Below the pieces are notes generated by a model. That model worked only from the letters and a program-made list of their open reading frames with translations. It searched no databases and was not told where the DNA came from. A stretch of DNA of 64,000 nt. Origin: Rickettsiales bacterium. GTDB lineage: Bacteria; Pseudomonadota; Alphaproteobacteria; UBA8366. Position numbers and translations under genes: made by a program. Positions 7,826 to 55,223 of the stretch are shown here, piece after piece; the stretch's first letter is position 1; each line of letters begins with the position of its first letter. Location: NCBI GenBank assembly GCA_002724555.1, contig PBOZ01000030.1:7799-71798 (forward strand), written 5' to 3'.

Positions 7826-7902
7826 GAGCGTATAGCTCAGTTAGCAATTCCGCTGACTTTGGAAATAAGAGTTCCAAAGTTCGAGCCCTTGTACGCTCAT
7901 CA
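7826..7902 (+). pseudogene. Degenerate full-length tRNA-like element (tRNA-Lys-derived pseudo-tRNA)
   Basis: Perfect 7-bp acceptor stem GAGCGTA/TACGCTC, then A-TCA where ACCA is expected. TAGCTCAGTT A-box start. GCTGACT matches the tRNA-Lys anticodon 5' arm. T arm is CAAAG-TTCGAGC-CCTTG. D-stem and anticodon-stem 3' strands no longer pair. Confidence 0.75.
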
Positions 7903-8080
7903 TGTTTAATAATTTAAACACGAATTTAATTTTTATGGATGTAGTGGTTGCTGAGGCTTCGAATGGGATGATTGTTAATTTGGGCGACGATTTAAACCAG
8001 AAACGCGCAAATTCATAGGTTTGTATCTTGCTGTCTTTGGCCGGTGTGAGCAGAATTCGGGACGTAAGGAGCCGAACACG

Positions 8081-9322
8081 ATGGCAAAATTAAGTGACTT
8101 CGACGAAATTGGTCGCGACTTCTACGAGTCGATGCCGATGCCCGAGTTTACTTACACACCTTGGGTAGTGCCTAAACCCATCGCTAAAGCGCGCGTCGCG
8201 ATTATCTCCACTGCAGGCCTGCAACTACGGGGGGACAGACCTTTTTCAGTTAATTCGACAGACTACCGAATTTTACCGAGTAATGCTTCGTCTGCGGATC
8301 TCGTAATGAGCCACATTTCAATCAATTTTGACCGAAGCGGCTTTCAAAAAGATCACAATGTTGCGTTGCCAATTGACCGGCTTAATGAGTTTGTTGCAGA
8401 TGGCAAGATCGGCTCGGCCGCCGCCTTTCATTACTCATTCATGGGGGCAACGCACCCAGATAAATTAGAGTATGCTGCTAATCAACTTGCTGATGTTCTC
8501 AAGAAAGATCATGTCGATTCAGTTCTGTTAGTGCCAATTTGACCAGCTTGCACGCGCGCCGTGGGCGGGCTCAGCCACTATCTAGAACGCGCCGGTTTTG
8601 CGACAGCAGGGATAAGTCTGATCCGACTGCACAGCGAAAGAATTCATCCGCCTAGGGCGCTTTGGGTACCGTTCGAACTTGGGCGCCCGTTTGGTGTTCC
8701 CCACAACGCAGCTTTTCAAACTCGCGTTTTGCAGAAACTGATAGATTTGTTCGATAGTTCTGAGGGTCCAGTGCTTGTAGATTACCCAGAAGATGCGCCG
8801 AGTAGTGGGTCCAAGGATATGGGGGGACTTGTCTGTCCAGTACAGTTTGATGCTTCTAACATTGAAGACGAAACGTTAGAAATGGCGGTAAACCGTGAAA
8901 TCATCGAATTGTTTCCTTGGTATGACCTCGCCCGTAAGCGGCGCCAGCGCACTACCGTCGGTGTGACAGGACTGGGAATAGAAGAGGTTGCTCGTGCTCT
9001 ATCTAGGTGGTTGACTTCGTCTCCGCCAGAGGACGTCGTAAATGATCAAACGCCAGCCGCCATGTTGAAACTCGCCGTTGAAGATTTGCGGGCATTTTAC
9101 TTTGAGGCCGCGGCTGGCCAGCCACACGGAGATTCAATCAGCAGCAAACAACTCGCTGATTGGTTCTGGGGTGAGACATCTGCAGCCAAACTGCTTTTGG
9201 CTTTGCGTGAGCGCCTTATCCTCGATGAAGATCCCGCGTTACAAATGTTAGGCCACAACAGCTTAGTTCCGCGGGAGCAGTGGACACGCTTCAACATTGA
9301 TGACCGCTGGTGGAATGATTGA
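8081..9322 (+). CDS. Selenoprotein of the glycine/sarcosine/betaine/D-proline reductase B (PrdB/GrdB) family with a C-terminal extension; Sec (UGA) at 8540-8542, codon 154
   Basis: ATG at 8081 with an AAGGAG RBS. ORFs 8021..8542 and 8561..9322 are in the same frame and joined by TGA CCA GCT TGC, giving VPI-U-PAC-TRAVGGLSHYLERAG. PrdB-like motifs lie on both sides (VAIISTAG, NVALPIDRL, HYSFMG; PPRALWVPFELGRPFG). Confidence 0.85.
8546..8575 (+). promoter_or_regulatory. Putative bacterial SECIS element
   Basis: Apical stem CGCC(8557-8560)/GGCG(8564-8567) closes a GUG loop that begins 19 nt after the UGA. A bulged lower stem GC(8554-5)/GC(8569-70) and GCU(8546-8)/AGC(8573-5) was folded by eye. 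Confidence 0.6.
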
Positions 9323-9673
9323 ATTGATCTGCTCTTCGAATTAATCGCGTCACTTTTCCTTAAAGCGATCTGCCTTTAACCATTAACTGGTGAATATAAC
9401 GAATAACCTATCTGCTAAGGGTAACTATTTAGGTGATTGAACACCGTAACAGGACTATCCGCACGTTCAGCCTATTTATTGAATAATTTACAAGATCTGG
9501 TACGCAAGGGATGGCTGAATAACAGACCATCATGAAGAATCGCAGTCCCGAGACAAGAGCAAGACCTTTTGACAGCCGCAAGTGTTGGAAAACAAATCCT
9601 TAGGATCCGCAAGAGAGGCGATCGCCTCTGGTCTGTTCTGTTGGTCACAGTAAAGGCAGCAACGCGTCACTGA

Positions 9674-10366
9674 CTAAACAAATCCCTCCGGGCTTTCCGG
9701 ATAGTCAGGCTGATTATAAGGCATCGCCTTTTCAAAAGCAGGGATTTCCTGACAACGTTGGTCAATGTCACATAATGTTGGATATGGAGATAAATCGATT
9801 TCAAACAAACGCGAATTATATAGTTGGGGAACAAGATAAATATCACCTATGGTTGGTTTATCATCATAACAAAAGGGCGTTTGCTCAGTACGCTGCGTCA
9901 TAAGCGTCTCTAGAGTTTTATACCCATGATGTAACCAGTTTTCGTACCAAAGCCTCAACTCCTCTTTGGAAAAGCCATGCTTTTCCATTAGGTTGCGCCT
10001 TATACGGCGGACCCCAACCGCATGCATCTCGCACGCAATAACCTGACTAAATGCACGCGATCTGGCACGGGCAATTAAGTCTTTGGGGAATAGAGACGGG
10101 CCTTCAAATGCATCCTCAATAAATTCAACTAGGGCAGAAGATTGCACAACACGCTCGCCATTTATAACTAGGGTTGGCATTAATCCCTGAGGATTTATCA
10201 AATGATAGTCTTCTTTACTTATAGATTTACCAGCTTGCGGAACTAAACTGTCAATGCCAACTGTCTCGACCACGATATACTCATAAGGAATATTTTTAAT
10301 ATTCAACGCGGTTCTAACTCGCTGACCAGCCGAGTTGCGATAGCGAGAATAAAGTTTCAAATCCAT
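9674..10366 (-). CDS. maiA: Maleylacetoacetate isomerase (zeta-class GST)
   Basis: NSAGQRVR, INPQGLMP, QSSALVEFI, DIYLVPQLYNSR and PYNQPD motifs. Confidence 0.82.
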   Translation of the reverse strand: MDLKLYSRYRNSAGQRVRTALNIKNIPYEYIVVETVGIDSLVPQAGKSISKEDYHLINPQGLMPTLVINGERVVQSSALVEFIEDAFEGPSLFPKDLIARARSRAFSQVIACEMHAVGVRRIRRNLMEKHGFSKEELRLWYENWLHHGYKTLETLMTQRTEQTPFCYDDKPTIGDIYLVPQLYNSRLFEIDLSPYPTLCDIDQRCQEIPAFEKAMPYNQPDYPESPEGFV

Positions 10367-11056: not shown

Positions 11057-11689
11057 TTATTTCCCCAACCGCACCGCGGTTTTGGCGTCTGCCGCAACCG
11101 TCCGCTCATAGGACGGAATTGCAGTTACCCGGTCGAATAAACCTTGCGCATAACTTGGCAAATCCGCCGTAACCATTCGGCAATATCCACGCATTGTATA
11201 GCAGATGCTGAGATCCGCAGCACTCATCGTATCACCTAAGAGGTAAGGCCGGTCCGCAACTGCGACATCGATAGCTTTAAGAGCCGAGGTCGCACGGCTT
11301 TTCATCTCTGCAACAACATCGTCGAGTTCTGGATTAAACTCACGACGGTGATTCACAATTTCACCAAGCGGGCGTGCGAAGGTCGCTTCAGCAAACCAAC
11401 ACCATTGCAGGTAATGCGCATAGACCGAATCATTCTTCAGAGGCTGAAGTTTGCCATCGCCATAGCGGTCGAGCACATATTGCATCATTGCGCAGGACTC
11501 GAACATCTTCATTTCACCATCTTTCATAACGGGCACTTTACCCGTTGAATTCATCGCTCGCCATTCCGGACGTGCACGATTTTCCGCCGAAAAATCGACT
11601 GGCTCGATCTCATACGGCACGCCTAACTCTTCGCAGGCCCAAATAACACGAAACCCGCGGGTTCCAGGGGAATGATAAATTTTTAGCAT
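11057..11689 (-). CDS. Glutathione S-transferase family protein
   Basis: GKVPV, FESCAM and SAADL GST motifs. Confidence 0.9.
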   Translation of the reverse strand: MLKIYHSPGTRGFRVIWACEELGVPYEIEPVDFSAENRARPEWRAMNSTGKVPVMKDGEMKMFESCAMMQYVLDRYGDGKLQPLKNDSVYAHYLQWCWFAEATFARPLGEIVNHRREFNPELDDVVAEMKSRATSALKAIDVAVADRPYLLGDTMSAADLSICYTMRGYCRMVTADLPSYAQGLFDRVTAIPSYERTVAADAKTAVRLGK

Positions 11690-11756: not shown

Positions 11757-12599
11757 TTAAACGACAGGGCTTCCGGCAATTTGGATACGCCGCATCAGAC
11801 GCTCCGCATGACGGACATCGTGGACGGCAATATGCTTGACGCACCTGTTATCCCAGAACGCAAGCGATCCTTTCTCCCAGCGAAAGCGGCAAGTAATTTC
11901 CGGGCGGTGGCCCCACTCCATGAGCCAATCGAGAAGTGGTGCACTCTCTTGCTCCGTCATCCCCTCAAATGCAACTGAATAGGAATGATTGACAAAAAGA
12001 CATTTCCGGCCTGTTTCCGGATGAGTGCGAATCACGGGATGGCTGTTCTTCGTCTCTCGCCATGCATCGTCGAGGCGGACAGCGGTGGACCGTTTGAATT
12101 TAGCTACCCGCGAACCCGGACCAGCAACCTTACGGTCGGTATGAATGCAACGCATTTCGCCAAGCAATGCCTTCATGCCTTCGGAGAGGCTTTCATAAGC
12201 GAGATACTGATTGGCAAAGAGCGTATCTCCACCATAATCTGGCACATCAAGGGCATAAAGTAAGGCACCCATCGGCGGCTCTGCCATCATCGTTGTGTCA
12301 GTGTGCCAATCCTCGCCGACGATCAACTCGTCCGTTGGCTTCCGATGGATGGTCACTACTTCCGGGTCATGGTCGCCCGTATTAAAGTTGGGGTGAATAA
12401 AGATTTCGCCAAACCGCCTTGCCAGGCATTTGTGCTGTTCGATGCTAATCTCCTGATCACGAAAGAAGATGACGCAGTAATCCAGTAAAGCTTGGCGAAT
12501 CTCTGCAATTACGTTTGCACTCAAATTTTTGCCAAGATCGACGCCAGAAATCACCGCCCCGATGGCGCTGGAAAGTGGCTTAATAGAGATTGTTGTCAT
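11757..12599 (-). CDS. TauD/TfdA family 2-oxoglutarate-dependent dioxygenase
   Basis: WHTD, GGDTLF, HPVIRTHPETGRK and WDNRCVKH motifs. Confidence 0.93.
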   Translation of the reverse strand: MTTISIKPLSSAIGAVISGVDLGKNLSANVIAEIRQALLDYCVIFFRDQEISIEQHKCLARRFGEIFIHPNFNTGDHDPEVVTIHRKPTDELIVGEDWHTDTTMMAEPPMGALLYALDVPDYGGDTLFANQYLAYESLSEGMKALLGEMRCIHTDRKVAGPGSRVAKFKRSTAVRLDDAWRETKNSHPVIRTHPETGRKCLFVNHSYSVAFEGMTEQESAPLLDWLMEWGHRPEITCRFRWEKGSLAFWDNRCVKHIAVHDVRHAERLMRRIQIAGSPVV

Positions 12600-12763: not shown

Positions 12764-14311
12764 CTATCTTGTAGCCAATACGGCGATCTCACCAACGACC
12801 CGCACCCGAGCCCTGACAGCATTACCAGGCAGATATGCAAGAGGCAGGTCTTCAACGTCGACCACTTCAAGCGTCGAAGGGTCAGCGCCAGCAAAAATCG
12901 CTCTATCACGCGCCATACGCTCGGCTTCCAACAAAAGTTCGTCGCGGGGCACGTCCCGGAAAACATGGTCCACTTCTCCACTTACCTGCGCCATAGCTGC
13001 GCCTACAGCATTAGCGACACCATGGTGAGGCACGCAGACGACTTCTGAAATACCATTCATTTCTTCGGGTGCAAGGACTGCGCCGCCGCCGACCGTAAGA
13101 AGTGGCTGTAAATTAGCGTTCGGCTTCATGCGATCTACACTTTCGAATATGCGCCGCTCTACTTCTTCGATTGTATTCTGAACCAGTTCGTAATCCAAAT
13201 GTCGCACCGCACGTCGGTCGCCAATCTCCGCCAGGCCGGCTGCCACGGCAATGTCCGTTAAAGTGATCGTATTCCCACCAAAGACGAGGGCTGCTTCAGT
13301 TAAATTATAACCAACGCTCGTAGGGCCAATTTGCCCCGTTTTAGCATTGACAATTGTGCCACCGCCAAGGGCGATTGACGTGACGTCCGGCATCCGGAAA
13401 AGGGTCCGCACACCTCCAATTTCAACAATATTGTTAGCCTCACGTGGAAACTTGCCAACAAGGCATCCGACATCACTTGTAGTACCACCAATATCGAGGA
13501 CCATCGCATTCTCAATACCAGCGAGGAACGCTGCACCCCGCATGCTATTAGTCGGGCCCGACGCAAAACTCAAAACTGGCTCACGCCGCGCAACATCGAC
13601 GGAAGCAACCGTACCGTCATTCTGCGTGATGTAGAGTGGGGCTGTAAGCCCACACTCCTTAAGCGCGTCTTCAAAAGCCGAAATGGTGAGGTCGGCAAGA
13701 TCGGCAAGGCTCGCATTCAAAAGGGTAACATTCTCCCGTTCGAGAAGGCCGATCCGGCCCAATTTGCTCGACAGAGTAATTCGCAGATTCGGCACTTCGC
13801 TCATAAGAATTTCGGCAGCTCGTTCCTCGAATTCAGCAGTGAGGGGCGAGAAAACAGACGTAACACCGACCGCATCGATGCCATCGGCCCTTATACTTCG
13901 GGCCGCTTCCACGATGGCCTTTTCGTCAAGCGACACGATCGGCTGGCCATTGTATTCGTGCCCACCTTCAATCAAATACACACCACCATTAACAAGTGCT
14001 GCAAGGTCTTCCGGCCAATCAACCATCGGTCGTAAACTGGCGCAAGCCGGCAAACAAATGCGGAGTGCTGCCGCCCGGTTAAGATGACGACGTTGCACCA
14101 CCGCATTGACAAAATGCGTCGTCCCAATCATCACGGCTACGACTTCCCTCACTTGATCGCCATGGGCTGCAACCAAGTCGCGCAGCGCTTTTGTGATCCC
14201 CGAGGTTACATCATCAGTTGTCGGTGTTTTCTTGCCGCCAAGCACCCTACTACCGTCGATCAATACCGCATCCGTATTAGTGCCGCCTACATCAATGCCG
14301 ATCCGGATCAT
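12764..14311 (-). CDS. Hydantoinase/oxoprolinase family protein
   Basis: IGIDVGGTNTD, SGPTNS, DIGGTTSD and ANAVGAA motifs. Confidence 0.9.
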   Translation of the reverse strand: MIRIGIDVGGTNTDAVLIDGSRVLGGKKTPTTDDVTSGITKALRDLVAAHGDQVREVVAVMIGTTHFVNAVVQRRHLNRAAALRICLPACASLRPMVDWPEDLAALVNGGVYLIEGGHEYNGQPIVSLDEKAIVEAARSIRADGIDAVGVTSVFSPLTAEFEERAAEILMSEVPNLRITLSSKLGRIGLLERENVTLLNASLADLADLTISAFEDALKECGLTAPLYITQNDGTVASVDVARREPVLSFASGPTNSMRGAAFLAGIENAMVLDIGGTTSDVGCLVGKFPREANNIVEIGGVRTLFRMPDVTSIALGGGTIVNAKTGQIGPTSVGYNLTEAALVFGGNTITLTDIAVAAGLAEIGDRRAVRHLDYELVQNTIEEVERRIFESVDRMKPNANLQPLLTVGGGAVLAPEEMNGISEVVCVPHHGVANAVGAAMAQVSGEVDHVFRDVPRDELLLEAERMARDRAIFAGADPSTLEVVDVEDLPLAYLPGNAVRARVRVVGEIAVLATR

Positions 14312-15399
14312 GGCAATTGGCCATCAAAGACGGATTTAAACTCAAGATCAAAGCCGAAGGCGCGCGGGCCAACATTGGCGAGACCTTTCGGGCTAAGAAA
14401 CACATTCGGGCTTGGCAGCGCCAAAACGGTAACCCGTTGGCCATACCGGATCACATCGGTACCAATTCCATCGCCACTAACCCTGTCGACAACGCAGATT
14501 AGATCCGGCGTCATCACGATAGGTTTGGCATCTCTGTAACCCACCGAAAACTCATTCTGGAAATGCACAGTGAACGTCTCGTTCACGTTACCATCAAGCC
14601 CTTCGATCCGCGCCTGGCCCCGCAGAAAACCTTCGGTCGCGCGCCGCTCTACATCGACGACCTTGCCATCAAACAGCCGAAGTCCGCCACCAATTTCAAC
14701 GATGGCTTCGACAGGGTCTGCGTGGACACGCCGCGCTTCCATCACGGCGACGCCCAGATCGATGGCTTTTGTCGTAGTGTAGTGGATTGCGTGATCTTTC
14801 ACTTCGCGCCCGGTACGCGGTGCCTTGCAGGTCGCAGCGATCGAGCCCACCTCGGCACAGGCCTTCCGGCTAATCCGTTCCATCCATTTCCAGCTGGCCG
14901 CTCGCGGAATAATTACTTCATTATCGCGGATATCAGCGAGCGCCAGCGGATAACATTGGAGACCCGCCACAGCGACGCTAGTCATCTGCGCTTCCGGATA
15001 AGCTCGGCCCATCGTGTCCGCATCAACTACAGGATAGCCGGTCAGCGCTGCCACCATCAGCGGGTGAACACCATTGCCACCCCCGATTTCAAGCGGCATC
15101 ACTGCATCAAACTTCCGTCCGAGGTAGGCCTCCATAGCGTGCAGGGGCTTTGTCGCAAATGCCGGGTCGGCCAACCGTTCTTGACCTACCAATGGTGCGC
15201 CCATATTGGAGAGCACAGCTACCAGTGCACTGTCAGGCAAGCTCATCGGATCAATCAGTGTGACTTCGTGACCCTCCCTATAAAGCTCCCGCATATTGAG
15301 AAGCCGGTGGTACGGTGTCCCACCACCACCAGTACCAAGAATCCAAGCGCCCAACGCTAGCGCTTCGATATCGTCGGACGTGAGAATTCGGGGATACAC
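14308..15399 (-). CDS. DUF917 family protein
   Basis: LGTGGGG, EIGGGNG, DADTMGRAYPE, FQNE and PDLI motifs; ATGA overlap with the hydantoinase. Confidence 0.9.
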   Translation of the reverse strand: MYPRILTSDDIEALALGAWILGTGGGGTPYHRLLNMRELYREGHEVTLIDPMSLPDSALVAVLSNMGAPLVGQERLADPAFATKPLHAMEAYLGRKFDAVMPLEIGGGNGVHPLMVAALTGYPVVDADTMGRAYPEAQMTSVAVAGLQCYPLALADIRDNEVIIPRAASWKWMERISRKACAEVGSIAATCKAPRTGREVKDHAIHYTTTKAIDLGVAVMEARRVHADPVEAIVEIGGGLRLFDGKVVDVERRATEGFLRGQARIEGLDGNVNETFTVHFQNEFSVGYRDAKPIVMTPDLICVVDRVSGDGIGTDVIRYGQRVTVLALPSPNVFLSPKGLANVGPRAFGFDLEFKSVFDGQLP

Positions 15400-33650: not shown

Positions 33651-33735
33651 ATTTTCGATCAAATTATTATAAACTCGTTACAATTTATTTTGCCGAGAGA
33701 CCGACACGACAAACACAGTGACGAAGGGAAGTTTC

Positions 33736-34761
33736 ATGCAAATTGACAGCATGATGTGGGATATCGGACTTCAAGACGCTGCCAGCTACGGGCAGATGTG
33801 CGAGCGGATCGGTTATGACTGCGTCTGGACCTACGAGGCGGCTCACAACCCATTTATGCCCCTGGCGCAGGTCGCAGCGGCCACAAAGAACATCCATATA
33901 GGCACCAATATCGCCGTAGCCTTCGCCCGCAGCCCCTATGCGATGGCTCAAGCCGCCTGGGATCTGGCCGATGTGAGTAACGGCCGCTTTCACCTCGGCG
34001 TCGGCAGCCAGGTGCGAGCCCATGTAGAACGTCGGTTCTCCGCCGAATTCGATCGTCCCGCCGCGCGTCTCACCGACTACATTAAATGCGTGAAAGCCAT
34101 CTGGGACAGTTTTCAGAATGGTACTAAGCCGAACTATCAAGGCGAGTTTTACCGCTACGTCCTAAACAATCCGATGTTTAACCCAGGTCCAATCGACCAT
34201 CCAAACATCCCAGTCTATGTTGCCGGTGTTAATCCGCGTATGTGCCAAGTCGCCGGTGAAGCCGCGGACGGCATGCATGTCCATCCGATGCATTCAGTCT
34301 CATACCTCCGTGACGTCGTTCGCCCTGCTGTGGAGAAAGGCGCTAAGCTAAGCGGTCGTAACATACAGGATATCGCTTTTTTTGCGCCAGTCTTCGTTAT
34401 TACCGGCGAGAACGAGGCGGAAAGAGCGGAAGCCGAAAAGAATATTCGTTATCAGATCGGCTTCTACGGATCGACCCCGAATTACCGTGCCCTATTAGAG
34501 CATCATGGCTACGACACGCTCGGCAAGGAACTAAGCGCAGCCACCCGCGCAGGTGAATTTGACAAGCTGCCCGGCCTCGTACCGGACGAACTTCTTCAGG
34601 CTTGCTCTGTCACTGGTGAGCCAACGGAGATCGCCCCAATCCTTCGCAAACGCTACGAGGGTGACCTGATGCAGCGCGCGTCATTGTACTTCTCGATGGG
34701 GAAGGATGCGCCCGAAGGTAAATGGCGTGAATTCATACAGGCCTTCAAATTGGCGGTATAA
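33736..34761 (+). CDS. LLM-class oxidoreductase, TIGR03617-like (probable F420-dependent)
   Basis: EAAHNPF, IAVAFARSP, LGVGSQVRAHVERRF and FYGSTPNY motifs. Confidence 0.85.
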   Translation: MQIDSMMWDIGLQDAASYGQMCERIGYDCVWTYEAAHNPFMPLAQVAAATKNIHIGTNIAVAFARSPYAMAQAAWDLADVSNGRFHLGVGSQVRAHVERRFSAEFDRPAARLTDYIKCVKAIWDSFQNGTKPNYQGEFYRYVLNNPMFNPGPIDHPNIPVYVAGVNPRMCQVAGEAADGMHVHPMHSVSYLRDVVRPAVEKGAKLSGRNIQDIAFFAPVFVITGENEAERAEAEKNIRYQIGFYGSTPNYRALLEHHGYDTLGKELSAATRAGEFDKLPGLVPDELLQACSVTGEPTEIAPILRKRYEGDLMQRASLYFSMGKDAPEGKWREFIQAFKLAV

Positions 34762-35037
34762 ACGCCCTACCCTACCGTGGATTTGTTCCAGTTATTTAGA
34801 CGGAGCCAGGCTACCACCGTAACAGCCGCCGGTGAGGTGCGAACTGGGCCCAGCCAATGCCGTCACAAGAACGACGTTTTTCTTTTTTAGCCGGCAGCCA
34901 TTGCGCCCCAGTGCGATGCCGTCTTCGATCATTAAGTTAGACGGTCAATCTGATTGTTGATTACCACCCAGCATGGTCGGAACGGTCCCGCGACACAACT
35001 TAATATAGACAGTTGGTGTGCTACTTACCGCGAATAG

Positions 35038-36054
35038 ATGGACCCCAGTGACCACAGTGTTCAAATGAAATTTGGCTTGTTTATATCGACGCAATTCAAC
35101 GCAGACCAGAATTTAGGCGGCGCGATAAAGTTTATGACCGAAGAAGCCCAAATGGCTGCCGATTGCGGCTTTGAATCAATCTGGTGTCCACACCACTACG
35201 TCACCGACCCAATTCGGATGTTCCAACCACACGAAACCCTGGCGCGCCTCTCAGCCAGCGTTCCAAATCTAAGGATTGGGACCGGGATCCTGCTTCTATC
35301 AATGATGAATCCAGTCCAAGTTGCGGAGCAGGCAGCAACGCTCGATTGGATGACGGACGGTGGTTATGTATTAGCCGCCGGTTTGGGCTACCGCCAGGAA
35401 GAATTTCAATCTATGGGCGTAAATCCGAAACATCGCCTAAGCCGCTTTGTTGAGGCCATCGAAGTAATTCGCCGCCTCTGGACAGAGGAACGCGTCACCC
35501 ACCATGGTCAGCATTTCCACTTGGATCAGATAGGCCTTTCCGCCCGCCCAAAAAAACCAGAGGGCTGTCCTATCTGGATCGGCGGGGCTGTCCCGCCTGC
35601 AGTGGAACGCGCGGCAAATCTTGGGGATGCCTGGCTAGCTAGTTTTACAACCGAACCCAATACCATGCGGGCCCTCTTTGAGATCTATCGCAAAGCTCTT
35701 CCGAAGAGTAAAACTCCAGAAATGCCAATGTGCCGGGAATGCTTCCTCGGCGATAGCGAAGCCGATGCACTTGATAAATGCGCAGAGACCTTGATAGAAA
35801 AATACGCAGCCTACGCTTCATGGAACAACCAACATGTCGCCAATGAACGACCGTTTGCAGAACGATTTGACGAGTATCGACGTAACCGGTTCTTGATTGG
35901 TGACGCCGCCCAGTTAACGGACGAGGTCGCCCGTTACCGCGATGAACTTGGCGTAACAACTCTAATGTTACGTATGAATTGGCCAGGAACTAATTTCGCG
36001 GATTCGCTCTCAAGCATCCGCCGTTTCGAGACCGTAATTAAGCAGTTCGCATAA
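35038..36054 (+). CDS. LLM-class flavin-dependent oxidoreductase (start may be 35065)
   Basis: MKFGLF, AEQAATLD, GLGYR and PIWIGG motifs. Confidence 0.88.
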   Translation: MDPSDHSVQMKFGLFISTQFNADQNLGGAIKFMTEEAQMAADCGFESIWCPHHYVTDPIRMFQPHETLARLSASVPNLRIGTGILLLSMMNPVQVAEQAATLDWMTDGGYVLAAGLGYRQEEFQSMGVNPKHRLSRFVEAIEVIRRLWTEERVTHHGQHFHLDQIGLSARPKKPEGCPIWIGGAVPPAVERAANLGDAWLASFTTEPNTMRALFEIYRKALPKSKTPEMPMCRECFLGDSEADALDKCAETLIEKYAAYASWNNQHVANERPFAERFDEYRRNRFLIGDAAQLTDEVARYRDELGVTTLMLRMNWPGTNFADSLSSIRRFETVIKQFA

Positions 36055-36135
36055 CAGAAACGGACTTTAAAAATGCTTGTTATTCCACCCGAAGAAACTC
36101 ATTACCCACCTCAAGCTGATGGAAGGATTAAGGTC

Positions 36136-37149
36136 ATGTCCCAACACGACAAATGGCTCGCACAAGTACAAGAAGAGACGCTGGAGCCGACCCTGCCAAT
36201 CATCGATCCACATCACCACCTTTGGCATTTTAAACATCCGGATGGCGAGCACCGTTATCTCTTGGAGGACCTCCTGGAGGACACGAGTTCCGGACACAAC
36301 ATTTTAGCAACAGTATTTATTGAGTGTTCGGCCATGTGGCGCGCAGATGGACCAGAAGAAATGAAGGTCGTCGGGGAAACCGAGTTTGTGAACGGTATCG
36401 CCGCCATGAGCGCTTCCGGCACATATGGCGACACTCGTGTAGCAGCCGGCATAGTCGGCACTGCTAACTTAAATGTCGGAACGCGCATCAGCGAGGTGTT
36501 GGACGAACACATGAAGATCGGTGGTGATCGGTTTCGCGGCATCCGATATCTGTCTTCTGCCGATCCACATCCCGACATCCGAAACGGCTACACCAACCCA
36601 CCACTCGGGATGTTCGGTGAGGCGAAGTTCCGGGAGGGATTTGCCGAGCTTGGCAAGCGCAATATGAGCTTCGAAGGTTGGCTGTTTCACCCACAAATAC
36701 CGGATCTCACCAGTCTAGCGAAAGCCTTCCCCGACACAGTGATCATACTCGATCATTTCGGCGGGCCGCTCGGTATTGGTCCCTATGCAGGCAAACAGGA
36801 CGAAGTTCTGGAAGTTTGGAGGAAGAACATTGCGGAATTGGCGGAGTGCGAAAATGTAGTAGCCAAACTTGGTGGCATAAATATGAAGGTCAATGGATTC
36901 GAATGGCATAAAAAGCCCAAACCGCCGACCAGCAAAGAACTCTGTGAAGCAACTCGCCCCTATTACGAGTACACTATTGAACAGTTCGGTGTGGACCGCT
37001 GCCTGTTTGAGTCGAACTTTCCAGTCGACAAGATCAGCTGCAGCTACAATACACTGTGGAATTCATTCAAGGTATTGACGGCCAACTATTCTGCAGACGA
37101 GAAAGCAAAATTGTATCATGACAATTCCGCCCGGGTGTACCGGCTCTGA
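36136..37149 (+). CDS. Amidohydrolase_2 family protein (lactonase-like)
   Basis: IIDPHHHLW, LDHFGGP and FESNFPVD motifs; GGAAGGA RBS. Confidence 0.88.
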   Translation: MSQHDKWLAQVQEETLEPTLPIIDPHHHLWHFKHPDGEHRYLLEDLLEDTSSGHNILATVFIECSAMWRADGPEEMKVVGETEFVNGIAAMSASGTYGDTRVAAGIVGTANLNVGTRISEVLDEHMKIGGDRFRGIRYLSSADPHPDIRNGYTNPPLGMFGEAKFREGFAELGKRNMSFEGWLFHPQIPDLTSLAKAFPDTVIILDHFGGPLGIGPYAGKQDEVLEVWRKNIAELAECENVVAKLGGINMKVNGFEWHKKPKPPTSKELCEATRPYYEYTIEQFGVDRCLFESNFPVDKISCSYNTLWNSFKVLTANYSADEKAKLYHDNSARVYRL

Positions 37150-37167
37150 GAAGGAAAGGCGAAGACA

Positions 37168-38190
37168 ATGGTTGAAAAGGCAACAAATCAGAAATGGCTC
37201 GACAGTGCAGAAGAAGAAGCGCTAGAGCCGGACCTACCAATCATCGACCCGCACCACCACCTCTGGGATTTTAAGGTTGAACGCGTAAACCCGCGCTATT
37301 TCCTTGAAGAGATGTTGGAAGACACAAATTCAGGCCACAACATCCTTGCCACAGTTTTCATCGAATGTGGCGCGATGTTCCGCGAAGACGGGCCGGATGA
37401 GGAAAAGCCACTTGGCGAGACAGAGTTCGTTAATGGGATCGCAGCGCAGAGCGCCTCCGGCCTTTACGGGCCAACACGTGTCGCTGCCGGAATTGTCGGC
37501 ACAGCACCGCTGCACATCGGCGAGCCGGTAAAAGATATCCTCGAGCAACACATCCAGCTTGGTGGCGGCCGTTTTAAGGGTATCCGCGTAGGTGTCACCT
37601 GGGACGCGAGCCAGGAAGTAGAAAACCATAGAACAGCTCCACAGCCCAACATTCTGATGGGCGAAAAATTCCGTGAGGGCTTTTCGCAGCTCGCGCACTA
37701 CGACCTCAGTTTTGAAGCGTGGTGTTATCACCCCCAAATTCCCGAAGTTACCGATCTGGCCCAGAAATTTCCAAACAACCGAATTATTCTGGACCACTTC
37801 GGCGGTCCCATCGGCATAGGCCCATATGCGTCACGCAAAGACGAAGTATTCGAAGAATGGAAAAAAAGTATCGACCACCTTGCCAAATGCGAAAACGTTT
37901 CGGCAAAGCTTGGCGGTCTGAATATGTTCGTCAATGGATATTTCTGGCAGGACAAGCCCAAACCGCCTAACAGTGAAGAGCTTTGTGAAGCAACACGCCA
38001 CTACTTCGAATATACGATTGAAAAGTTTGGCGTCGAACGCTGCCTATTTGAGTCCAATTTTCCCGTCGATAAGCTGAGTTGCAGCTACGTTGTGTGCTGG
38101 AACTCATTCAAGCGGCTTACCGCAAACTATTCGGCAGGTGAAAAAGCAAAGCTATATCACGACAACGCCAAACGCATTTACAAGCTCTAG
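37168..38190 (+). CDS. Amidohydrolase_2 family protein (tandem paralog)
   Basis: Same motifs as the upstream gene: IIDPHHHLW, LDHFGGP, FESNFPVD. Confidence 0.88.
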   Translation: MVEKATNQKWLDSAEEEALEPDLPIIDPHHHLWDFKVERVNPRYFLEEMLEDTNSGHNILATVFIECGAMFREDGPDEEKPLGETEFVNGIAAQSASGLYGPTRVAAGIVGTAPLHIGEPVKDILEQHIQLGGGRFKGIRVGVTWDASQEVENHRTAPQPNILMGEKFREGFSQLAHYDLSFEAWCYHPQIPEVTDLAQKFPNNRIILDHFGGPIGIGPYASRKDEVFEEWKKSIDHLAKCENVSAKLGGLNMFVNGYFWQDKPKPPNSEELCEATRHYFEYTIEKFGVERCLFESNFPVDKLSCSYVVCWNSFKRLTANYSAGEKAKLYHDNAKRIYKL

Positions 38191-38195
38191 AAGCA

Positions 38196-39251
38196 ATGCG
38201 GGTCGTATATCACATCCCAAACAACGATCTTAGAGTTGCAGCGGAAGCAGCCCGGGCAGCTGAAACAGCTGGTTTTGATGGTATCGTCGCCCTGGAGAAC
38301 GCCCACGGACCCTTCCCACCCCTCTCGGTCGCTGCCATGGCGACAGAACGCATTCAGATTGGAACTGGCGTTGCTATCGCGTTTCCGCGCAGCCCAACCA
38401 TTATGGCCCATGCCGCTTGGGACCTGCACAAGGCAAGTGGCGGACGGTTTTATCTTGGGATCGGCAGTCAGGTGAAAGGTCATAATGAGCGCCGCTACGG
38501 CATTGAGTGGACGCCACCCGCCCCCCGAATGAAAGACTATATTGGCGCGGTGCGGGCGGTGTGGCAGGCCTGGGAGACGGGCGCGCAGATCGATTATCAC
38601 AGCAATCATTACACTCTAACGCTGACAACACCGAATTTCGCACCGCGCCCATCTGAGCTACCGGCAATACCAATCGCCATGTCCGCAGTCGGCCCCGCCA
38701 TGCTACGGGTGGCCGGTGACACAGCAGATGGCGTCCGATTGCACCCATTCAGCACGAAGAAGTACCTAGCCGAAGAAAGCCTGAAACATATTAGTGAGGG
38801 CCTAACGCGCAGCGGTCGTTCACGCCAAGACATCGAAGTCGTGTCCGGCGCCTTTCTCGCTACAGGTAAGGACGAAGAAGCAGTCTCGAAGATGCGGGAG
38901 TATATCCGCTTCCGCATTTCGTTCTACTGTTCGACCCGCTCCTATTGGCACGTGCTTCGCCTTCACAATTTGGAAGAGCTTGGCGAACGGCTTCGACCTT
39001 ATCCAAAGGAGAACCGGTGGGACAAAATGGCAGCGGAAATTTCTGACGATGTGTTGGAGTTATTCGCCACCGTTGGCACTTATGACGAAATCGGCAGTAA
39101 GATCGCGAACCGTTACAAAGGTCTTGCCGACACGTTATCGCTGTTCGTACCGACAGACACCATGCCAGGACCTCTAGGTGAGATTTTACAAGACATACAA
39201 AAAATTCCATCCCAATTTTTGGCTCATAGGTCGAAATGGGGCACTGCGTAG
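38196..39251 (+). CDS. LLM-class oxidoreductase, TIGR03617-like (probable F420-dependent)
   Basis: ENAHGPF, IAFPRSP, LGIGSQVKGHNERRY and FYCSTRSY motifs. Confidence 0.85.
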   Translation: MRVVYHIPNNDLRVAAEAARAAETAGFDGIVALENAHGPFPPLSVAAMATERIQIGTGVAIAFPRSPTIMAHAAWDLHKASGGRFYLGIGSQVKGHNERRYGIEWTPPAPRMKDYIGAVRAVWQAWETGAQIDYHSNHYTLTLTTPNFAPRPSELPAIPIAMSAVGPAMLRVAGDTADGVRLHPFSTKKYLAEESLKHISEGLTRSGRSRQDIEVVSGAFLATGKDEEAVSKMREYIRFRISFYCSTRSYWHVLRLHNLEELGERLRPYPKENRWDKMAAEISDDVLELFATVGTYDEIGSKIANRYKGLADTLSLFVPTDTMPGPLGEILQDIQKIPSQFLAHRSKWGTA

Positions 39252-53920: not shown

Positions 53921-54556
53921 ATGGCAGAAGGTATCCAAGTACAAACCGTGGCGCACGTCGTTTTCGAAGGGTTTACGACACTCGATATGTATGGTCCGGT
54001 CCAAGCATTTGCCAGCTGCCGCGTCCCCGATGGCGAAGGTGGTTGGCATCGTTTCTTTAACCAATTCACCATAGGTTCCAAAACTAACGCTGTGAAATCA
54101 GGTGAGGGGCCCTTAACAATGGTCGACTACAGTTTTGAGGACGCGCCCGACTTTGATATTCTGCTAATCCCGGGCGGATTTGGAACCCGAGCGGCTGTCT
54201 CAAACGATGCCTTGTTGGGAAAGATCGCAGCAATGAGTGAAAAAGCGCGCGTTACCGCGACCGTATGCACTGGTTCCGCTGTCCTCGCGCGGACCGGCCT
54301 TCTCGACAGCCGCCCAGCAACATCTAATAAATTGGCTTGGGACTGGGTTCTGGAACAAGGTCCCCACGTTGATTGGAAACGACAGGCTCGTTGGGTCGAT
54401 GACGGCGATATCATTACTTCATCCGGTGTTTCTGCCGGGATCGATATGACCCTCGACCTGATTGCCCGCTTGCGCGGTGAGGAAACCGCCACTAATTCCG
54501 CAAAATTTATGGAGTACATCTGGAACCGAGTGCCTACCAACGACCCATTTTCCTAA
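53921..54556 (+). CDS. DJ-1/PfpI family protein (isonitrile hydratase-like)
   Basis: LDMYGP, PGGFGTR, VCTGS nucleophile and TSSGVSAGID motifs. Confidence 0.9.
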   Translation: MAEGIQVQTVAHVVFEGFTTLDMYGPVQAFASCRVPDGEGGWHRFFNQFTIGSKTNAVKSGEGPLTMVDYSFEDAPDFDILLIPGGFGTRAAVSNDALLGKIAAMSEKARVTATVCTGSAVLARTGLLDSRPATSNKLAWDWVLEQGPHVDWKRQARWVDDGDIITSSGVSAGIDMTLDLIARLRGEETATNSAKFMEYIWNRVPTNDPFS

Positions 54557-54617
54557 AAACCTAAAACATCGCCACAAAGATCGTCGCTCACATTCGTATA
54601 ACGAGGAGGCAAAGAAA

Positions 54618-55223
54618 TTGGAACGATCCCAGCAACTTCAAAAATTTCTTAAAGCGACCCAGAACGCGTTCTCGGCCTCTGGTGCAAAAATGGATGCACT
54701 AGTGGTCGCAGATAAGATTTTCTCAATAGCAGATGCAAAATCCGGCGTAGCGGCAAAACCAGATGCGGTTGAGTTACCCGCTTGTAAATACCTTGGCGTC
54801 GCTTTGGAAAGTGCTAAGGCGGAAGGCGGACCCATAGCGAATCTCGCTCTCGCACTTGAAGGCATTGCTCCTCATCTAAAGTGGGGCTTGCGTCCAAATG
54901 GCGAAAATGACGACGCGACGTTCAAAGCATGTCATGCAAATGCCGTTGTAGTTGGCAAAGATGGCCTCGAAGAACGTTACGATATCCGTATCGGCATGAG
55001 CCTATTGGCGCCCGAAACCAGGTATCCGGACCACCGTCATCCCCCAGAAGAAATATACACCGTCCTGACACCTGGCGAATGGAAACAAGGTACAGATGGC
55101 AAATTCAAATCGCCCGGTATTGGCGGTTTCGTTCACAACGTACCTAATATCGTGCACGGTATGCGTTCGAAGGATGTGCCGTTATTGGCCGTCTGGAGTT
55201 TATGGATGGGAGACAACGCATGA
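54618..55223 (+). CDS. DMSP lyase family (DddQ/DddL-like) cupin
   Basis: G.SLLAP..RYPDHRHPPEEIY and HN.PN..HGMRS...PLLA.W motifs; TTG start after GAGGAGG. Confidence 0.75.
   Translation: MERSQQLQKFLKATQNAFSASGAKMDALVVADKIFSIADAKSGVAAKPDAVELPACKYLGVALESAKAEGGPIANLALALEGIAPHLKWGLRPNGENDDATFKACHANAVVVGKDGLEERYDIRIGMSLLAPETRYPDHRHPPEEIYTVLTPGEWKQGTDGKFKSPGIGGFVHNVPNIVHGMRSKDVPLLAVWSLWMGDNA

Follow-up and report, generated by a model that had tools for sequence, protein, structure and literature searches.

A marine PrdB-like selenoprotein with an undescribed C-terminal helical domain and no detected pyruvoyl partner

In D-proline reductase, the subunit PrdA binds a substrate carbon through its pyruvoyl group, this carbon is attacked by the selenocysteine (Sec, U) of a second subunit, PrdB, and a C-terminal segment of PrdA is required for binding of PrdB (PMC11229817). 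In metagenomic surveys, the label 'proline reductase PrdB' is attached to a family with a UxxC motif and a pfam07355 domain, which is reported to be among the most abundant selenoproteins of the ocean (PMC1088965, PMC2398784, PMC9402790). The Sargasso Sea survey lists 42 such genes (PMC1088965), the Global Ocean Sampling (GOS) survey 235 Sec and 110 Cys genes (PMC2398784), and in an enlarged GOS set PrdB accounts for 6.4% of the selenoprotein genes (PMC9402790). These surveys and two reviews (PMC9312934, PMC13188914) describe the PrdB family by its clostridial reaction, in passages that mention neither an extra domain nor a missing PrdA. Here, we analysed a stretch of 64,000 nucleotides from a Rickettsiales bacterium (contig PBOZ01000030.1, positions 7,799 to 71,798 of the forward strand), hereafter called the window, which carries a gene for a PrdB-like protein at 8081..9322 on the plus strand. 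Read through an in-frame TGA and terminated by another TGA, this gene would, as judged from its sequence, encode a single selenoprotein of 413 residues. We propose that the protein and its long-form relatives are self-contained U/C reductases, in which a helical domain stands in place of the missing subunit, a reading that we consider moderately probable.

The protein combines an alpha/beta core domain of the GrdB/PrdB superfamily (residues 1 to about 240; 8081..8800, +) with a predicted C-terminal domain of six helices (residues 256-413; 8846..9319, +). Pfam returned PF07355 (GRDB) as the only match, with 37.3 bits against a gathering cut-off of 22, residues 11-151 being placed on profile positions 199-345 of 347. 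The protein thus qualifies for the GrdB/GrdF/GrdH family, but holds only the C-terminal half of GrdB while the N-terminal half is absent. The top NCBIfam match was TIGR04483 (PrdB), to which residues 24-221 align on model positions 19-215 of 238, yet the score of 94.6 bits amounts to only one third of the 300 that the equivalog cut-off demands. The B-subunit subfamily model TIGR01918 reached 47.6 bits, under its cut-off of 65.45, and the GrdH, GrdF and GrdB models of NCBIfam each scored below their cut-offs as well. On these scores, the core is a member of the GrdB/PrdB superfamily that fits none of the characterised B proteins. Extended to its full 238 positions, TIGR04483 would end near residue 244, and about 170 residues follow. 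An initial annotation, made from the sequence alone, had set the end of the PrdB-like part close to the start of the span 8780-9322, which takes in residues 234-413 and the stop codon; the profile matches agree with this boundary, as GRDB extends to residue 151, TIGR04483 to residue 221 and nothing past about residue 240. All four peptides quoted in that annotation, GLVCPVQF, PWYDLARKRRQRTTVGV, LKLAVEDLRAFYFEAAAGQP and LADWFWGET, occur in the read-through translation of 8081-9322 (+).

As reference for the core we used a true GrdB (443 amino acids, motif U-x-x-C-x-x-C), encoded between GrdE and GrdA in one genome of our sample (G223), together with two short paralogues from the genome to which the window belongs. 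The window protein has D91, P97, G108, G111, E130, U154, C157, E169, G172, R192, G201 and P207 in common with the true GrdB, but its motif is U-x-x-C instead of U-x-x-C-x-x-C. After a common P-L-G-x-P motif, GrdB of G223 and both short paralogues end or diverge, and none of them has a counterpart of the tail; canonical GrdB ends some 30 residues past this motif. The comparison with PrdB of Clostridium sticklandii and Clostridioides difficile is similar: the cores are homologous over residues 24-221, Sec occupies the same place in U-x-x-C, and the chemistry, selenolate attack followed by resolution by a nearby Cys, is likely shared. Canonical PrdB, however, has about 240 residues and ends soon after P-L-G-x-P, while the window protein is extended by a helical domain of 160 residues. 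The taxonomic setting differs as well, since the long form is found in marine Pseudomonadota and PrdB in amino-acid-fermenting Firmicutes.

Structure prediction with AlphaFold2 (AF2), based on an alignment of 23 full-length sequences (18 with TGA and 5 with Cys at the Sec position, 36-54% identical to the window protein), gave a full-length model with a predicted local distance difference test score (pLDDT) of 89 and a predicted template modelling score (pTM) of 0.89. In this model, the alpha/beta core is followed by a disordered linker (residues 244-250) and six helices between residues 266 and 393, and the pTM value suggests that core and tail form one folded unit in which the tail folds confidently against the core. 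Strand 147-151 leads to U154, followed by helix 155-170 with C157 one turn on, a predicted placement that is typical of a redox C-x-x-C pair. For the full model, a Foldseek search of the PDB gave no match at E ≤ 0.001, and the VIA wide comparison returned only generic Rossmann-like folds for the core, the best of them with Z 8.8 over 134 aligned residues (root-mean-square deviation 3.2). A search of PDB sequences with the family profile found no relative (the best was glyoxylate carboligase, E 0.53); hence it offered no PrdB or GrdB structure for comparison. Across the 23 homologues, D84, N93, H117, E169, R192, Q213, E273, R290, Y340 and T366 are invariant polar residues of core and tail. All of 120 close relatives retain R192, E273, R290 and T292, and 119 of them retain Y340 and E342. 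So many invariant polar residues in both domains suggest an enzyme-like protein with a substrate pocket.

Modelled alone, the tail reached a pLDDT of 90.7 and a pTM of 0.86, and the confident six-helix fold found no partner in the PDB by Foldseek at E ≤ 0.001; the best VIA wide Z score of 5.4 lies within the noise for helical bundles. Neither Pfam nor NCBIfam gave a match beyond about residue 240, and when 21 tail sequences were searched singly against Pfam at E ≤ 10, no family matched more than one member. Searches of the ESM Atlas returned only unnamed 'hypothetical protein' clusters. A possible origin as the displaced N-terminal half of GrdB was ruled out by hhalign (probability 0.13%). The tail is nevertheless conserved in all 23 full-length homologues, with E273, R290, Y340, T366 and P397 invariant and with E273, R290-T-T, D335, Y340, E342, W363 and T366 as the polar residues that are kept. 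Searching with a tail profile, we obtained 969 cluster representatives (50% identity) at E ≤ 0.001 among 1.84 billion, 628 of them at 1e-10. In all of the best 150 of these 969 matches, the tail lies C-terminal to a GrdB/PrdB-like core; most of these 150 are fragments of about 245 residues that begin just past the Sec codon, and one (411 amino acids) is clearly full-length. The tail is thus a conserved helical domain that is specific to the long-form family and found only in this architecture, and it is without a description in any database searched (Pfam, NCBIfam, the PDB by sequence and fold, and the ESM Atlas). The claim of an unassigned domain in the initial annotation, which would have fallen with a match to a characterised domain, is hence confirmed.

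The same annotation had also suggested that the tail and its 'CP' motif might replace the partner subunits. The cysteine of this motif, Cys252 (codon 8834..8836, +), lies in the flexible linker that joins core and tail, where the model is of low confidence (pLDDT below 50 at residues 244-250, mean 65 at residues 251-260). Of 120 close relatives, 116 have Cys252, as against only 17 of the 23 broader full-length homologues; lacking universality, it is no indispensable replacement for the partners.

Scanning of 58 open reading frames (ORFs) of the window (21 + 37) revealed no PrdA/GrdE, GrdA, thioredoxin or PrdC. A rival explanation would be an ordinary B subunit of D-proline reductase (or of glycine or betaine reductase), with PrdA/GrdE, GrdA and PrdC encoded elsewhere in the genome. 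Such a view accords with TIGR04483 PrdB as top NCBIfam match, with the Joint Genome Institute (JGI) name PrdB for Cys homologues and with the filing of the family as proline reductase in the surveys (PMC1088965, PMC2398784), and the genome of the window is only 65% complete. A class sample of 301 genomes includes 23 carriers of the long form, 17 of them at least 90% complete. PF09338, the family of the PrdA/GrdE proprotein, was found in none of the 23 carriers and not in the window's own genome, although the same search detects it in one of the 301 genomes: in G223 it stands (E 1.4e-140) beside true GrdB and GrdA in a canonical grdE-grdB-grdA set, and this genome has no long form. GRDA (PF04723) was likewise found in none of five carriers examined, four of them 98-100% complete, whereas G223 as positive control gave a match at E 1.2e-39. 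No PrdC or PrdH context was found in long-form carriers either. Together with the 94.6 bits against a cut-off of 300, the sub-threshold scores of the other B-protein models and about 170 extra residues that canonical GrdB does not have, these results largely refute the B-subunit explanation, which we now regard as very improbable. The lack of canonical partners that the initial annotation had noted for the window thus extends to the window's own genome and to the 23 carriers, and the strictly co-occurring prd or grd operon that would have contradicted it was not found in any of these carriers. From gene content, the long form appears to work without a PrdA/GrdE pyruvoyl subunit, selenoprotein A or a fixed gene partner.

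Reading the gene as one unit depends on decoding of the in-frame TGA at 8540..8542 (+) as selenocysteine U154 in the motif U-P-A-C157. The program-made ORF listing gives two frames instead, 8021-8542 and 8561-9322, broken by TGA 8540-8542. We place the start at ATG 8081 and not at TTG 8021 of this listing, as a Shine-Dalgarno-like AAGGAG (8066..8071, +) lies 9 nt upstream of this ATG; all homologues in the alignment begin at the equivalent M-A/V-R/K-L. In column 154 of the alignment, TGA is found in 18 and Cys in 5 of the 23 sequences, P155 and C157 are invariant and the reading frame is conserved through the TGA. Within the class sample, 26 long-form genes occur in the 23 genomes, of which 22 have exactly one TGA at this position and 4 have none. 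An RNAalifold consensus of the 18 genes with Sec revealed a common hairpin at positions 15-31 after the U of UGA, i.e. with an 11-nt spacer, which in the window corresponds to the core of a putative Sec insertion sequence (SECIS)-like element at 8554..8570 (+) within a wider minimum free energy helix at 8545-8571. Such spacing matches that of the SECIS element of E. coli. Within the stem, all 18 Sec forms encode Ala by the synonymous codon GCC, which none of three Cys forms uses, and Val is encoded by GUG in 15 of 18. An Rfam search around the gene at E ≤ 10 returned no bacterial SECIS model and only a chance match to the eukaryotic SECIS_1 (minus strand, 9485-9541, E 3.7). The window's own genome encodes tRNA-Sec (C64:5603-5693, -) with 79.8 bits in Rfam against a cut-off of 47. 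This isolated tRNA gene has a Fur-family gene on one side and a glutathione S-transferase (GST) gene on the other, with no sel genes close by.

Could the TGA be a true stop, so that the locus consists of two genes (173 and 253 codons) or of a pseudogene in decay? Gene callers do split the family in this way, as 115 of the best 120 relatives begin after the TGA, the gene's own terminator is a TGA too, and no RNA contig spans the in-frame TGA. Against this stand the Cys at the TGA column in 5 of 23 homologues with its conserved frame and invariant neighbours P155 and C157, the single TGA kept at this place in 22 of 26 long-form genes across the class, the conserved hairpin and the presence of tRNA-Sec. 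The full-length model, in which the TGA position falls within a strand-helix junction of what is predicted to be one unit, points in the same direction, and we consider a true stop hardly credible. Metatranscriptomes contain identical contigs over 8048-8214, 8828-9301 and 9090-9374 in three RNA libraries from two studies; since carry-over of DNA is possible, they are a weak sign of expression. One long-form copy of the class sample (L021, G033:C4:226389-227567) has an in-frame TAG besides the TGA and may be decaying or affected by a sequencing error.

Genes for the Sec machinery lie close to some of the long-form genes. In 9 of the 22 genome loci, selA, selB or an NADH-oxidoreductase::SelD fusion is no more than 8 kb away and sometimes directly adjacent, as counted from BLAST clusters with Pfam run on representatives only. 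The fusion (Pyr_redox_2::SelD (AIRS), about 750-810 codons) adjoins the PrdB-like gene in four genomes (loci L040, L052, L054 and L056; Pfam on L054 and L040 only). Combined with U-x-x-C as a typical thiol/selenol redox motif, this proximity would also suit a protein that is no metabolic enzyme but serves the Sec machinery as a redox carrier or in selenium handling, e.g. by passing reduced selenium to SelD. But adjacency to sel genes is expected anyway for a 'client' selenoprotein, most of the 101 loci compared below have no sel gene nearby, and the many invariant polar residues suggest a substrate pocket. Cys-form carriers argue against it as well: three complete genomes (G085, G251 and G010, each 100%) and one that is 83% complete (G183) keep the gene and have neither SelA nor SelD above cut-off, whereas a Sec-form carrier (G098) gave 545.6 bits for SelA and 272.6 bits for SelD. 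It follows that the function does not depend on selenium handling, and Sec should be regarded as a catalytic improvement rather than a requirement. A role in selenium supply thus appears improbable to us, and we interpret the clustering with sel genes as marking the PrdB-like protein as a probable client of the Sec machinery.

How might a self-contained reductase of this type work? We suggest that a small polar substrate binds where core and helical domain meet. The helical domain would fill the place that the PrdA/GrdE subunit takes in the clostridial enzymes, and most likely builds the substrate site with its invariant polar residues. The selenolate of U154 would then attack the substrate and C157 would resolve the adduct, giving a selenenylsulfide, before a general thiol system (thioredoxin or glutathione) re-reduces the enzyme. 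Cys252 on its flexible linker may act as a relay in most members, although a non-essential one. Thiol-relay reductases such as methionine sulfoxide reductase A follow the same scheme, in which a resolving Cys accompanies the catalytic Sec or Cys, another Cys sits on a flexible segment and thioredoxin recycles the enzyme. This likeness to the proposed logic is a functional analogy only, with no known relation in sequence or fold.

Several observations weigh against this proposal of a self-contained reductase. That the tail lies over the U154/C157 site, and that Cys252 can reach this site, is supposition, and Cys252 is missing from 6 of the 23 broader homologues. The inactivity reported for the U151C variant of C. 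difficile PrdB (PMC11229817) sits uneasily beside natural Cys forms. On the side of decoding, the hairpin energy of the window's own sequence is no better than that of shuffled sequence, SelA, SelB and SelD were not found in the window's own, 65% complete genome, and the RNA contigs cover both halves of the gene with none bridging the TGA. In a more far-reaching and, to our mind, rather unlikely version, the protein would be a Sec-dependent reductive lyase made of one polypeptide: a selenolate would expel a good leaving group directly from a marine osmolyte that is abundant, or from a derivative thereof (for instance a betaine, as a quaternary amine, or a sulfonium compound), with neither a pyruvoyl group nor selenoprotein A, while the tail would form the pocket and Cys252 would relay electrons from thioredoxin or glutathione. 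If true, this would amount to a new enzyme class and to an unrecognised Se-dependent route in the cycling of carbon, nitrogen and sulfur in the ocean. The suggestion of new chemistry on C-N or C-S bonds, which had already been made in the initial annotation, is at this stage purely conjectural.

The long form is widespread. Of 7999 candidates in a word-indexed protein search, 2119 scored as relatives at E ≤ 0.001; of the best 120 of these, 115 have their start past the Sec codon and bear either no name or the label 'hypothetical', and a few full-length Cys forms carry the JGI name 'D-proline reductase (dithiol) PrdB'. A scan of metagenomes confirmed at least 507 of 599 candidate stretches. The closest named relative belongs to MarineAlpha4, an alphaproteobacterial metagenome-assembled genome (84% identity over the part after the TGA), and others come from Hyphomicrobiaceae, Deltaproteobacteria and Desulfobacteraceae. 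Like the PrdB family described in the surveys, the long form is marine and very abundant, has a UxxC motif and occurs more often with Sec than with Cys. Hence, it is almost certainly the environmental 'proline reductase PrdB' family that was counted in the Sargasso Sea and in GOS. A full-text literature search for PrdB-like or GrdB-like proteins returned only unrelated rumen work. What is known, then, is a family that has been counted since 2005; what is new is its private extra domain and the lack of partner subunits, and its name is probably wrong. Among the most abundant ocean selenoproteins, a family labelled 'proline reductase' is thus found without the subunit that holds the substrate and with an undescribed domain instead. 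From the missing PrdA subunit and the extra domain it follows that a large share of the marine demand for selenium is tied to an enzyme that is probably misnamed. Natural Cys forms and carriers with complete genome assemblies make direct tests practical.

To look for a conserved partner gene, we compared gene neighbourhoods at 101 loci. Of these, 22 came from genomes and 79 from metagenome contigs, which were often short. As a single-protein scan of the genome contigs gave one locus only, the genome loci were taken from the genome search instead. No conserved neighbour was found, no family being present in more than 8 of the 101 loci, and the immediate upstream and downstream genes vary between loci. 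The commonest families were enoyl-CoA hydratase, acyl-CoA dehydrogenase and histidine kinase (8 loci each), followed by response regulators and selB (7 each), selA (6) and TauD (6, in two clusters), with GST in a few. A carnitine-like coenzyme A (CoA) pathway (CoA-transferase III, acyl-CoA dehydrogenase, enoyl-CoA hydratase and AMP-ligase) was considered and dropped, because these generic families co-occur in only one locus (L009). The initial annotation had presented the gene as an orphan architecture and as the best candidate in the window for an undescribed system. With 2119 relatives scored and with counts already in two surveys (PMC1088965, PMC2398784), an orphan it is not, and a single gene without conserved neighbours in 101 loci makes no system. 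What holds of the overall claim is the observation itself, the self-contained protein and the undescribed tail, while orphan status, a multi-gene system and a universal CP cysteine have to be given up.

The window's own genome (G000), small as it is, carries four UxxC proteins of the GrdB/PrdB superfamily. One is a second long-form paralogue of 404 amino acids (C109:17846-19054, -; L001:745-1956, L051), which has the motif U-P-N-C and is 44% identical. It heads a co-directional row of four TauD-family dioxygenase genes, an FAD_binding_2 flavoprotein gene, an AMP-ligase and a carboxyl transferase gene, with a hydantoinase gene divergent upstream. The other two are short-form PrdB-like selenoproteins of 298 and 292 amino acids without the tail (C51:17271-18164, +, and C100, L141:1080-1955), in which the motif reads U-P-V-C and U-P-I-C, respectively.

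In the window, the PrdB-like gene is flanked by tRNA-Val (7826-7899) and a convergent GST gene, and a scan for promoters and terminators gave nothing above chance. Genes 3' of it encode two GSTs, a TauD-family dioxygenase, a hydantoinase-A-like and an S-Me-THD/DUF917-like protein (9674-10366, 11057-11689, 11757-12599 and 12764-15399, all -). The pair of GST and TauD genes also flanks a Cys-form gene in one further locus (L059); since TauD is present in only 6 of 101 loci, we take this link to be local. Farther away, a gene of the cupin-type dimethylsulfoniopropionate (DMSP) lyase family (PF16867, E 4e-39) is located at 54462-55220 (+), overlapping the end of a DJ-1/PfpI gene, with an alpha/beta hydrolase gene coming next. 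At 33718-39248 (+), three luciferase-like monooxygenase genes and two Amidohydro_2 genes stand in a row that continues with a short-chain dehydrogenase/reductase (SDR) gene and looks like an uncharacterised catabolic cluster.

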